Below, in pieces: positions 1,136 to 9,818 of a stretch of 10,866 nt of DNA. The stretch is from a virus (Duplodnaviria; Heunggongvirae; Uroviricota; Caudoviricetes), in IMG/VR virus record IMGVR_UViG_2579778899_000010, positions 1 to 10,866 of that record; one strand, written 5' to 3'. Position 1 is the first letter of the stretch, and each line of letters starts with the position of its first letter. Made by a program: the position numbers and the translations under genes. A model generated the notes under the pieces. It saw nothing but the letters and a program-made list of their open reading frames with translations, ran no database searches and was not told the origin of the DNA.

Positions 1136-1381
1136 ATGTTCAGGAAACCGTCGAAGCCAGAATTAAGGTATTCGGGGGTAAGAAATGAATATGTTATCTG
1201 GTGTCCAACTTGTGGTTACAGGACACGACCAGATAGTAATAAGCAGTCTGTAATTGCCGATTGGTATTTATCAAATCAGCCAGGTAATAAGCATATAGAA
1301 AATCTTTGGATTAAGCGTTACTTGGAAATCAGAGAGGGTGCGACCGTGGTCGCACAAGAAAATGAAAATAACGCCATTTAA
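1136..1381 (+). CDS. Small Cys-containing protein, putative zinc ribbon; start uncertain (1061 or 1136)
   Basis: The ORF contains WCPTCGY, and upstream FCLC if started at 1061. There is no clear SD. Its C-terminal codons (GATVVAQ) read straight through palindrome copy 1. Confidence 0.4.
   Translation: MFRKPSKPELRYSGVRNEYVIWCPTCGYRTRPDSNKQSVIADWYLSNQPGNKHIENLWIKRYLEIREGATVVAQENENNAI
1338..1355. repeat. Palindrome copy 1: GTGCGACC-GT-GGTCGCAC
   Basis: Read directly; 8-bp inverted arms around a central GT. Lies at the 1136/1362 gene junction, 6 nt before ATG 1362. Confidence 0.9.
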
Positions 1382-4744: not shown

Positions 4745-4987
4745 ATGGATAAAAAGGCATTGCTTTTTGAAATGATACGAAAACGGAGCGAAAAGAGCTT
4801 TTCTGATGGTGGTGATGGTTTTGTTTTCGCTTCGATGCTTTCTTTTGATGTTGGGTTAAATAGCAGAATTGTTAAAAGGATGCTTGATTCTGCTGTCCGT
4901 ACTGGACTTCTTGAGAAAGTTGATCGTGGCATAGGGAGAGAGCATAAGTATCGGGTCACACAGCAGTTTACGCAGTTAATTCATTGA
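4745..4987 (+). CDS. Hypothetical small protein, possible winged helix (80 aa)
   Basis: SD GGAGGG before ATG 4745. Last gene of the rightward early operon before the AT-rich SOS promoter region. Confidence 0.6.
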   Translation: MDKKALLFEMIRKRSEKSFSDGGDGFVFASMLSFDVGLNSRIVKRMLDSAVRTGLLEKVDRGIGREHKYRVTQQFTQLIH

Positions 4988-5008
4988 AAATTGACCGTAA
5001 AGTTTGAG

Positions 5009-5036
5009 TTTTACCCTGTAATTTTATACAGTATAA
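5009..5036 (+). promoter_or_regulatory. SOS-type promoter: -35 TTTACC (5009-5014), LexA box CTGTAATTTTATACAG (5015-5030), -10 TATAAA (5031-5036)
   Basis: CTGT-N8-ACAG with an AT-rich spacer is the E. coli LexA operator pattern. It exactly fills the 16-bp spacer between the -35-like and -10-like hexamers, 40 bp upstream of ATG 5070. Confidence 0.6.
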
Positions 5037-5069
5037 ATAACCTTTTTTAGTTAAATGGTATGAGATTTA

Positions 5070-5273
5070 ATGTCTGAAGCAGCCGTATCAACTCTTGAAC
5101 AACTCGATTCAAATTTAAGAGATATTGACGCCGTTCTGGATCTGGTTAGCGTCACCCTGGCTTCTCCAGAAGCCAGCCTACATATTGGTGAGGTTTCACG
5201 ACTCATCAACATGTCGCGAGAGATTGCCCAGCATTGTCAGCAAACTATCGCTGTTGAGCGTTCACATCATTGA
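5070..5273 (+). CDS. Small protein (67 aa) under putative LexA control; candidate SOS-induced antirepressor or induction factor
   Basis: ATG at 5070 downstream of the LexA-box promoter gives MSEAAVSTLEQLDSNLRDIDAVLDLVSVTLASPEASLHIGEVSRLINMSREIAQHCQQTIAVERSHH. SD is weak. Function is inferred from context only. Confidence 0.55.
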   Translation: MSEAAVSTLEQLDSNLRDIDAVLDLVSVTLASPEASLHIGEVSRLINMSREIAQHCQQTIAVERSHH

Positions 5274-5315
5274 TGCACACCCCGCCCTTCTGGACGGGGT
5301 AGTAAAAGAGTCTAA

Positions 5316-5603
5316 TTAATAAACAGCGCGAATATCGATGGTTGCGCCGCAGGCATGAGCATATTTAGCCAAAGTTTTCATACTTGCCCCTAAAGGATTG
5401 CTTTCCAGGCGGCTGATGGCTGACGGTCGCAACCCCATTCGTTCAGCCAGAGCTGATTTCGTTAAACCTGCTCTTTCCCTCATTTCGTATAACATTTCGA
5501 CCATCTCCAGCTCTTTGTCGGCCTCTTCATATCCTTTGACGGCTTCTGGAGTGTTGAGGAGTTTTTCTTTTACTTCGTTAAACGGGATGCCTTTCGCTTT
5601 CAT
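5316..5603 (-). CDS. HTH (XRE-family) antitoxin of a HigA-like type II TA pair (95 aa)
   Basis: Minus-strand ATG at 5603-5601 with SD AAGGAGA 7 nt upstream, overlapping the toxin stop by 1 nt. HTH segment LTKSALAERMGLRPSAISRLESN. Confidence 0.8.
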   Translation of the reverse strand: MKAKGIPFNEVKEKLLNTPEAVKGYEEADKELEMVEMLYEMRERAGLTKSALAERMGLRPSAISRLESNPLGASMKTLAKYAHACGATIDIRAVY

Positions 5604-5914
5604 CAGTTCATCTCCTTCAGGCGAGTTCTGGCGATTTCGATAGCCTTCACCGGTGTTTTCTGTGTCTTTTTTACAAATGCATGCAATAGATAAATTTCGT
5701 TACCAGTCGCGTAGGCGTACAGCGTTCTTGCGATGTTTTTATCCCCTACTCGTAGTTCAAAAAGCCCTCCACCTATTACACGGCTATGGGGCATCTTCAG
5801 TTTGTTGCCTTCCTTCTCCAGTCGCTCAATTAATCTGGTCATGCGACCTCGCAAATCATCTGGTAGTTCAAGCAGTTCATCCAGTGCTGCAGGGTGGGTT
5901 ATCACGTTAAACAT
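5603..5914 (-). CDS. RelE/ParE-superfamily toxin, HigB/Gp49-like (103 aa)
   Basis: Minus-strand ATG at 5914-5912 with GGAGG 7 nt upstream. Product MFNVITHPAALDELLELPDDLRGRMTRLIERL...GGLFELRVGDKNIARTLYAYATGNEIYLLHAFVKKTQKTP matches the RelE-fold Gp49/HigB pattern. Toxin-first order with a coupled HTH antitoxin. Confidence 0.8.
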   Translation of the reverse strand: MFNVITHPAALDELLELPDDLRGRMTRLIERLEKEGNKLKMPHSRVIGGGLFELRVGDKNIARTLYAYATGNEIYLLHAFVKKTQKTPVKAIEIARTRLKEMN

Positions 5915-6079
5915 ATTATAGCCTCCATAGCCATAAAATACACCAAAACAAGAAAAAAGCGCAAATTAAAAATTTCACTAAAAAGTTAAAAATAACACTG
6001 GATGTGTTCGTTTGGCAGAGTTACAGTTCGTGTCATTGAGGGGCAATAACCCACTAACTATATGAATTTGGAGGATATT

Positions 6080-6301
6080 ATGAATTATCAAGGTAACGAA
6101 AAAATGCGCGACGACGTTGCGGAGATAGCTAACGAACTGTATGAGTTGTGGCAGAAGGTTGAACGTTTCGAAAAGGAATATGGTTTCAACAGTACCAACC
6201 TGGCAGAACGACTGGCTGGTCGCTTAGTTGGGACTATGGGGCCAAAACTGGCTGAGTTGAACCGCTTTATGGCTGATGTTGATTTCCAGTTTCAAGATTG
6301 A
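6080..6301 (+). CDS. Hypothetical small protein (73 aa)
   Basis: Strong SD GGAGG (6069-6073) 6 nt before ATG 6080. The track's longer 6062 start has no SD. Confidence 0.55.
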   Translation: MNYQGNEKMRDDVAEIANELYELWQKVERFEKEYGFNSTNLAERLAGRLVGTMGPKLAELNRFMADVDFQFQD

Positions 6302-6314
6302 TTAGAGAGGCGTT

Positions 6315-6542
6315 ATGAATATTAATGAAATTCGTGGAAATATGACTGAAGCGGCCCTGAGTGTGGAATGTGTTATGCGTGGATACCCACGCATTTCCCT
6401 GAAAGAGTTAAGCGAAGCCTGTTTTTTGAGTCAAGCTGCCGTTGAATTTATCATCGAACAGATGATCTGTTTTGGGGTTGCAAAGCGTAGCGGGTCTGGT
6501 CGATATTCTTTGACCGATGAATATAAGCAGGCAACTTTCTAA
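6315..6542 (+). CDS. Hypothetical small protein with possible winged-helix DNA-binding fold (75 aa)
   Basis: SD GAGAGG before ATG 6315. Segment RISLKELSEACFLSQAAVEFIIEQMICFGVAKRSGSGRYSLT is wHTH-like. The stop lies 5 nt before palindrome copy 2. Confidence 0.5.
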   Translation: MNINEIRGNMTEAALSVECVMRGYPRISLKELSEACFLSQAAVEFIIEQMICFGVAKRSGSGRYSLTDEYKQATF

Positions 6543-6547
6543 AAACT

Positions 6548-6565
6548 GTGCGACCACGGTCGCAC
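6548..6565. repeat. Palindrome copy 2: GTGCGACC-AC-GGTCGCAC (central dinucleotide inverted relative to the other three; flanking T/A extend it to 20 bp, 6547-6566)
   Basis: Read directly. Immediately after the stop of the 6315..6542 gene and about 85 bp upstream of the intrinsic terminator. Confidence 0.9.
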
Positions 6566-6650
6566 AGCACAAAAACGAAAAAGCTTGGCAAAATTACGGT
6601 TTTTAGTTATTGTTTTGTTAAGTTGGGTTTTTTGTACCCAACATCCAACA

Positions 6651-6676
6651 AGCCGCCTTTATGGCGGTTTTTTTGT
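6651..6676 (+). terminator. Rho-independent terminator (hairpin AGCCGCC / GGCGGTT with 5-nt loop, then a T7 run)
   Basis: Sequence AGCCGCCTTTATGGCGGTTTTTTTGT: GC-rich stem plus a run of seven T, located between the small-gene pair and the methyltransferase. Confidence 0.6.
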
Positions 6677-9580: not shown

Positions 9581-9598
9581 GTGCGACCGTGGTCGCAC
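9581..9598. repeat. Palindrome copy 3: GTGCGACC-GT-GGTCGCAC
   Basis: Read directly. 19 nt after the stop of the 9250..9561 gene, preceded by the boxA-like string TCTCTTTG (9564-9571). Confidence 0.9.
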
Positions 9599-9800: not shown

Positions 9801-9818
9801 GTGCGACCGTGGTCGCAC
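9801..9818. repeat. Palindrome copy 4: GTGCGACC-GT-GGTCGCAC
   Basis: Read directly. Exactly 220 bp from copy 3 (start to start), 23 nt upstream of ATG 9842. Confidence 0.9.

Follow-up and report, generated by a model that had tools for sequence, protein, structure and literature searches.

The gene pair at positions 5316-5914 of the window, by which we mean the whole stretch of viral DNA that was analysed (10,866 nucleotides), is very probably a gp49-gp48 type II toxin-antitoxin (TA) operon, of the kind also termed tad-ata or Gp49-type higBA, in which an RNase toxin is encoded and which serves as an addiction module of an N15-like plasmid-prophage. Gene structure, protein family, fold, conserved catalytic residues, orthology to N15 and synteny with it were all observed for the pair. 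The outcome is mainly a correct annotation, in that the pair can be assigned to the published addiction module of the N15-like family, together with a corrected context, namely a plasmid-prophage instead of an integrated prophage island.

Both genes are located on the minus strand, with plus-strand genes on either side, and the toxin gene comes first. The toxin gene (5603-5914) is an ORF of 103 amino acids with a match to Pfam Gp49 and corresponds to N15 gp49 (Tad, or Gp49-type HigB, of the RelE superfamily). The antitoxin gene (5316-5603) is an ORF of 95 amino acids that matches HTH_3 and corresponds to N15 gp48 (Ata/HigA-like). The two reading frames meet in the sequence TGATG (5601-5605, minus strand), where the toxin TGA occupies 5605-5603 and the antitoxin ATG 5603-5601, a single base being common to both. 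This 1-nt overlap probably couples the translation of toxin and antitoxin. Each gene is preceded by a Shine-Dalgarno sequence on the minus strand: GGAGG (5922-5926) lies 7 nt 5' of the toxin ATG and is invariant in an alignment of the upstream regions of six N15-family elements, and AAGGAG (5612-5617) lies 8 nt 5' of the antitoxin ATG, within the toxin coding sequence. Coordinates, toxin-first order, overlap and both Shine-Dalgarno sequences were thus all present where a preliminary description of this DNA had put them, and its account of a minus-strand unit between rightward genes agrees with the ORF layout and the neighbouring annotation. Chance reading frames can be dismissed, because the ORFs match Gp49 and HTH_3 and because each of the 16 matching E. 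coli plasmids has both of them intact and annotated.

Regarding the family of the toxin, the profile search gave a full-length match to Pfam PF05973 (Gp49), covering profile positions 1-90 of 90 (E 2.5e-29; 101.6 bits at a cut-off of 23.9), as expected from the earlier assignment to the Gp49 family. Apart from a chance match to PilZNR, nothing else was detected in the Pfam scan of the toxin up to an E-value of 0.1. In NCBIfam, the match to a RelE/ParE family model stayed below threshold (E 0.023), and PHROGs places the protein in phrog_2523, which is labelled as of unknown function. The toxin is 100% identical to RefSeq WP_001495871.1, named type II TA system RelE/ParE family toxin. One database search returned 835 homologues, and PF05973 was present in all of the 120 homologues listed among these except one fragment, a truncated protein of 65 amino acids (P0106) without a precomputed Pfam hit.

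To describe the fold, an alignment of 53 homologues was used to build both an AF2 model and a sequence profile of the toxin. A single-sequence AF2 model had been unusable (pLDDT 45) and was superseded by the model from the alignment, which reached a pLDDT of 88 and a pTM of 0.83. In this model, strands are found at residues 3-6, 44-48, 51-58, 61-70 and 73-82 and helices at residues 8-15, 19-38 and 89-102, giving a beta-alpha-alpha-beta4-alpha topology with a long C-terminal helix. When compared to the PDB with Foldseek, the best matches were S. pneumoniae HigB structures (6AF4 and 6AF3, TMq 0.73-0.81, with 0.79-0.81 for 6AF4), followed by M. tuberculosis HigB1, both free (7AWK) and ribosome-bound with cspA mRNA (7NBU), at TMq 0.77-0.78. 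After these came RelE, YoeB, V. cholerae HigB2 and YafQ. The RelE fold anticipated for this protein was therefore recovered by structure prediction, with HigB structures ranking first. The profile also matched the sequences of solved HigB proteins (6AF3 at E 7.9e-11, HigB1 7NBU at E 4.8e-7). ParE chains were weaker in Foldseek, with E-values of 0.02-0.05 and TMq of 0.42-0.52 against about 1e-5 and about 0.8 for HigB. A ParE-type gyrase poison is accordingly unlikely, as the ParE matches were weaker than those to HigB in both E-value and TMq and residues of the RNase type are present. The canonical HigB family (Rts1 or E. coli K-12 type) was rejected, since Pfam gives Gp49 only and the fold match is distant.

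The active site could be followed at the residue level. To the catalytic pocket of HigB1 belong K58, E66, R68, N73, R77, F93, K95, Q98 and K99 (PMC9098466). Residues were mapped by HMMER alignments, with the position of K95A as a check of the register, and HigB1 K95 aligns with toxin K82. The counterparts in the toxin are, in the same order, R45, E53, R55, N60, R63, F80, K82, Q85 and K86, with the reservation that R77 falls on R63 in the profile alignment only and on T64 in the pairwise alignment. Over the 53 homologues, E53, R55, R63 and K82 are invariant. Judged by its homology to ribosome-bound HigB1, the toxin is most probably a ribosome-dependent mRNA endonuclease. In M. tuberculosis, the Gp49-family proteins HigB2 and HigB3 are non-toxic (PMC9098466); in contrast to the toxin of the window, they do not have the residues that are kept here.

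In the case of the antitoxin, Pfam HTH_3 and related XRE-type HTH models were matched (E 2.8e-12), with the XRE-type HTH at residues ~36-90 behind an N-terminal extension of ~35 residues. NCBIfam antitoxin models of the HipB, MqsA and Y4mF types were all matched below threshold, and weak sequence matches were found to the solved HigA2, HipB and S. pneumoniae HigA proteins. PHROGs assigns the antitoxin to phrog_1373, transcriptional regulator. The protein is 100% identical to RefSeq WP_001683870.1, which is named helix-turn-helix domain-containing protein.

Upstream of the operon, the alignment of the six N15-family upstream regions suggests a candidate promoter at 5935-5964 (minus strand), with TTGCGC (5964-5959) as -35 element and either TGTATT (5942-5937) or TATTTT (5940-5935) as -10 element. 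This version is weaker than the corresponding hexamers of N15, TTGTGT-17-TATATT. A consensus promoter and terminator scan of 4900-6400 detected no minus-strand promoter in the gap 5' of the toxin ATG; its sole promoter-like call fell within the beginning of the gene-50 homologue, ~140 nt 5' of the toxin ATG. The same six upstream regions share an inverted repeat, TTTAACT-TTTT-AGTGAAA in the window (5973-5990, minus strand), which may serve the HTH antitoxin as its operator. In N15 the repeat is perfect, TTTCACT-TTTT-AGTGAAA with arms of 7 bp, whereas the copy in the window has one mismatch in the left arm. The N15 record labels the position of the repeat as a putative stem-loop terminator (L002 6552-6572). 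In tad-ata systems, the antitoxin is also served by an additional promoter inside the operon; the 3' end of the toxin gene held no convincing hexamers for such a promoter. Rfam, run over the entire window, returned no RNA family at the gathering threshold.

In a tblastn comparison, N15 gene 49 was matched by the toxin at 92.2% identity and N15 gene 48 by the antitoxin at 85.3%; in the pairwise alignments this amounts to 8 substitutions in the toxin and 14 in the antitoxin, with no gaps. N15 gp49-gp48 have the same lengths (103 and 95 amino acids), the same 1-nt overlap, orientation, upstream repeat and Shine-Dalgarno sequence, and they are likewise flanked by gene 47/antC and, at the opposite end, by genes 50-51. 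As a difference, N15 has a canonical terminator 3' of the pair, where the window has a GC-rich hairpin without a U-tract instead. On the basis of these sequence comparisons, the pair is the orthologue of N15 gp49-gp48. The preliminary assignment to the type II TA modules is upheld by the Gp49 and HTH_3 profiles, the RelE-fold model, the catalytic residues and the identities to N15 gp49 and gp48 (92% and 85%).

N15 gp49 is also the protein behind the name of the Pfam Gp49 family. The N15 pair reportedly stabilised a heterologous replicon, and its toxin is said to have been bactericidal in E. coli when overexpressed. According to its title, the 2007 paper of Dziewit et al. (J Bacteriol 189:1983; PMC1855756) describes a TA stabilising system of N15 that is homologous to tad-ata of pAMI2. 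The same work is cited in PMC2701414, PMC3581621 and PMC5906591 for N15 gp49-gp48 or for validated toxins of the Gp49 domain. Among the Tad (COG4679/DUF891) toxins, which are similar to RelE, N15 gp49 was cited as the example from a phage (PMC2701414), and a toxin gene in first position with a small gene for an XRE-family HTH antitoxin close behind is the rule in the family (PMC5906591, PMC2701414). Altogether the module is already known: the N15 counterpart is published, identical proteins are in RefSeq and the toxin is annotated there as a TA toxin. The finding is correct but ordinary, because the near-identical N15 gp49-gp48 module was described and tested in 2007.

The nature of the replicon was determined by comparison with related elements. 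A megablast search with positions 5100-6150 returned 16 E. coli records, all of them plasmids of ~36-75 kb (most ~46 kb) and none of them a chromosome. The whole window is 98% identical to the Escherichia phages PhiR46_1 and YDC107_1, with phiKO2 and N15 more distant. On the nearest plasmid, pEC21Z151-46K, a protelomerase, a replication protein of the CyRepA1 family, SopA and ParB are encoded, together with a CB-like repressor, Cro, Q and lambda-like head and tail genes; the two RefSeq proteins identical to toxin and antitoxin are also encoded on it. Given the protelomerase, CyRepA1 and SopA/ParB, the element of the window is therefore an N15-like linear plasmid-prophage and not an integrated prophage. 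The accessory island of an integrated prophage, in which the pair had been placed before, is thus contradicted by the gene content of a near-identical plasmid.

N15, phiKO2 and the Klebsiella phage KpLi5 all carry the pair in the same slot, with genes 48 and 49 between gene 47/antC and gene 50. In these three elements it is again a leftward pair; on one side it is bordered by the block of genes 46/47 together with a small convergent ORF, on the other by genes 50-51. Hence, of the moron-like insertion that had been proposed, the moron-like form stands, but a local insertion does not, as the slot is the same across N15, phiKO2 and Klebsiella relatives. The TA pair is a family trait of N15-like elements. 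In an Enterobacter Ravinvirus, hicAB occupies this slot beside a decaying gp48 remnant, and the antC-adjacent slot appears to be a site of TA exchange within Ravinvirus-like elements. Relatives of the toxin were found on 3,723 plasmid records, ~330 of them at an identity of at least 80%; the remaining ones are mostly ~42% identical and belong to plasmids of Klebsiella and other enterobacteria. The toxin family is common and routinely annotated.

The following mechanism is proposed for the addiction module. In the lysogen, the pair would be transcribed leftward from its own promoter. The antitoxin, through its N-terminal extension and XRE HTH, would bind and neutralise the toxin, and probably it would also repress the operon at the upstream inverted repeat. 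The RelE-fold toxin would cleave mRNA on the ribosome, with a catalytic pocket like that of HigB from the M. tuberculosis TAC system. When the low-copy plasmid-prophage is lost from a daughter cell, synthesis of the antitoxin would end there; with the antitoxin as the presumably shorter-lived partner, the toxin would be freed and translation would stop. Cured cells would in this way be removed by post-segregational killing, which may back up SopAB partition and stabilise the native replicon. Some care is needed at this last step: deletion of the homologous pair s044-s045 of SXT did not increase loss of SXT (PMC2654960), and stabilisation of a test plasmid is therefore no proof of a role in the native element.

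Several known systems resemble the pair to different degrees. M. tuberculosis HigB1 (HigB of the TAC system, Rv1955; 7AWK, 7NBU) shares with the toxin the Gp49-type RelE fold and the long C-terminal helix, and its catalytic pocket residues are conserved in the toxin at an overall identity of ~25-28%. The HigB1 locus is also toxin-first with an XRE-HTH antitoxin, as is the pair of the window (PMC3581621). The TAC system differs by a gene for a SecB-like chaperone, of which there is none among the ORFs of the window. HigB1 K113 corresponds to toxin K100, but R117 in helix alpha3 of HigB1 has no counterpart because the toxin ends at residue 103. S. pneumoniae HigBA (6AF3, 6AF4) is the best match among solved structures in both sequence and fold, at an identity of ~24%; its HigA aligns weakly with the antitoxin (E 0.009), and its HigB chain is longer at the N-terminus (141 amino acids deposited, with the match starting from its residue 57). 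Canonical HigBA (plasmid Rts1, P. vulgaris, E. coli K-12) is similarly toxin-first, with an HTH antitoxin and a toxin of the RelE superfamily, but canonical HigB constitutes a different toxin family, and the E. coli and Shigella HigB structures gave Foldseek E-values of 0.03-0.08 and TMq of 0.55-0.61. With regard to the biological role, phd-doc of the phage-plasmid P1 is the same, being an addiction module on a plasmid-prophage (PMC12977533); here the proteins are unrelated, the toxin being a Fic/Doc kinase, and the gene order is antitoxin-first.

We consider it unlikely that the pair is mainly an anti-phage module acting by abortive infection or exclusion, whereby an invader would stop host transcription, the antitoxin would decay and the toxin would block translation. 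It is general knowledge that TA modules of other families on prophages act against phages. The moron-like build of the pair, reversed relative to its neighbours and with a candidate promoter of its own, is consistent with such a role, and so is the exchangeable slot, since hicAB next to a gp48 remnant in the Enterobacter Ravinvirus is a pattern typical of accessory or defence cargo. A scan of PADLOC-DB 2.0 pointed in both directions: residues 43-95 of the toxin gave a weak domain-level match to the C-terminal part of NsnC (residues 229-282 of 293; E 2.6e-7), but no full-length match to any defence model was obtained for the toxin or for the antitoxin, which matched generic HTH models. As PADLOC gave no system-level match, a catalogued defence system was rejected and the pair was not filed as one. 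Furthermore, our literature search yielded no experimental test of a defence role for N15 gp49-gp48, and on this low-copy plasmid replicon the documented role of the module is addiction. As a side observation, addiction and anti-phage roles are not mutually exclusive.

A second set of alternatives concerns the neighbouring ORF at 5070-5273 (plus strand, 67 amino acids), which lies outside the TA module and had been described as an SOS gene. It shares 56% identity with an N15 ORF that is unannotated and lies between genes 47 and 48, and it matches phrog_10889, 'anti-repressor' (E 6.9e-8). N15 is induced via AntC, a LexA-controlled antirepressor (Mardanov and Ravin 2007, in the form in which PMC3121763 cites it). 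From its sequence and position, the ORF is likely the counterpart of this AntC, so that a 'hypothetical' gene can now be labelled as a likely LexA-controlled AntC antirepressor. In front of it, the one perfect LexA box of the window, CTGTAATTTTATACAG (5016-5031, plus strand), runs into a TATAAAT -10 element, the two lying 39 nt 5' of the ORF; the N15 LexA box at the aligned position is CTGTGTTTATATACAG. At up to one mismatch, 5 LexA boxes were counted in the window against 3.5 expected, which is not above chance. The weight of the box at 5016-5031 thus comes from its location and from the conserved box in N15, not from the count.

The antC-like ORF and the TA operon are convergent and separated by a gap of 42 bp. 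Past the antitoxin stop, this gap contains a GC-rich hairpin, CCCCGCCC-TTCT-GGACGGGG (5277-5303), with a folding energy of -19.4 kcal/mol on the minus strand (z -3.8) and -14.6 kcal/mol on the plus strand. A U-tract is absent from this hairpin on both strands, and the consensus scan of 4900-6400 called no terminator between the convergent genes. At the corresponding position, N15 and phiKO2 have a canonical hairpin followed by a U-run.

If this reflected a loss of the canonical terminator in this E. coli lineage, the SOS-induced antC transcript might run antisense through the antitoxin gene and the constitutive TA transcript through antC, a reading that we regard as very unlikely. Toxin release would then be linked to prophage induction, the lysogen would be buffered against spontaneous induction, and the adjacency of antC and the TA pair, kept even after the swap for hicAB, would be functional rather than historical. 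It is still more improbable that the pair as such is wired to induction through the convergent, LexA-controlled antC, either by antisense transcription into the antitoxin gene or by TA transcripts that damp leaky antC expression, in which case toxin activity and the lysis-lysogeny switch would affect each other. The convergent arrangement at 42 bp, an adjacency kept in N15, phiKO2, KpLi5 and the Enterobacter phage that bears hicAB, and the hairpin without a U-tract where N15 and phiKO2 have canonical terminators would all fit such a link. Against this, the support is positional, and termination or pausing at the 9-bp GC stem is still conceivable. In N15 there is moreover a strong bidirectional terminator (-28 kcal/mol), and because of it read-through cannot be a conserved ancestral design. 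The coupling to the SOS gene proposed in the preliminary description thus comes down to adjacency, as the antC-like ORF is convergent and has its own LexA box and promoter.

Finally, we regard it as very unlikely that the toxin, as a protein of the RelE/ParE superfamily, is inactive or not an RNase, e.g. that it poisons gyrase in the manner of ParE or is a partner without toxicity, and that the HTH protein is a phage regulator of transcription: the sub-threshold RelE/ParE match in NCBIfam, the presence of ParE among the weaker fold matches (TMq ~0.5), the non-toxicity of certain Gp49-family members (PMC9098466) and the PHROGs labels of both proteins would agree with it, but HigB-type RNases reach TMq values of 0.76-0.81 compared to ~0.5 for ParE, the residues of the RNase pocket are kept and invariant over the homologues, and a functional TA system has been published for the N15 orthologue, according to the title of Dziewit et al. 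2007.

On the other side of the addiction module, a coupling to the methyltransferase neighbourhood had also been suggested. Between the pair and this gene lie the homologues of genes 50 and 51, beyond them an 18-bp palindrome that is annotated as a putative partition site in phiKO2, then a late promoter, TTGGCA-17-TATTGT (6585-6613), and a terminator (6653-6674) between the late promoter and the methyltransferase. Because of these two genes, palindrome, promoter and terminator, the link was rejected; the methyltransferase is the first late gene.

The plus-strand neighbour that converges on the toxin-antitoxin pair is a 67-aa open reading frame (5070-5273, plus strand) for which RefSeq gives simply the label 'hypothetical'. 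This ORF matches a PHROG anti-repressor family and shares 56% identity with an ORF of phage N15 that is itself unannotated. Upstream of the 67-aa ORF lies a perfect LexA box (5016-5031), overlapping a -10-like TATAAAT, and the N15 counterpart also has its own LexA box. The 67-aa ORF is probably the AntC antirepressor, the trigger of SOS induction of the plasmid-prophage.

The gap between antC and gene 48, the antitoxin gene, differs between the related phages. In the N15 record (L002, 5835-5870) this gap holds a canonical bidirectional terminator of -28 kcal/mol with a U-run, whereas the E. coli lineage of the window has instead a GC hairpin (5277-5303) that is shorter and lacks a U-tract. In the Klebsiella phage KpLi5, both the N15-type terminator and the GC hairpin are present.

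In the Enterobacter phage MStein-2023a, a Ravinvirus (L009, CP115603.1; 524-1760), the gp49 toxin is missing and its place is occupied by a HicA-like ORF of 60 aa and a HicB-like ORF of 143 aa. These are followed by the gp48 antitoxin, reduced to a frameshifted remnant, and then by the convergent antC-like ORF. The slot adjoining antC looks like a site of toxin-antitoxin exchange.

To the right of the pair, on the plus strand, the late promoter (TTGGCA-17-TATTGT) is followed after about 40 nt by a terminator with a strong hairpin and a T7 run, CCGCC-TTTAT-GGCGG-TTTTTTT. This region (6585-6674) aligns with the annotated late promoter and terminator of N15 and phiKO2, located 5' of the methyltransferase gene, and it is here that the Q antiterminator, whose gene lies at 418-1128, is expected to act.

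An 18-bp palindrome, GTGCGACC-GT/AC-GGTCGCAC, occurs four times in the window (1338-1355, 6548-6565, 9581-9598 and 9801-9818), against 0.01 occurrences expected by chance. The copy at 6548 aligns with a site kept in N15 and phiKO2, and in the phiKO2 record this counterpart is labelled 'putative plasmid partitioning site'. The four palindromes most likely represent the SopB centromere sites that lie scattered along N15-type plasmids. Spurious ORF starts (MRPWSH...) arise from three of these copies.

Regarding topology, the 46-kb N15-like plasmids among the E. coli matches are mostly deposited as 'circular' (e.g. NZ_CP101200.1), although they encode a protelomerase; these labels are probably an assembly convention for linear replicons with hairpin ends. 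One plasmid among these matches, RL465 plasmid III, has a record that gives its topology as linear.
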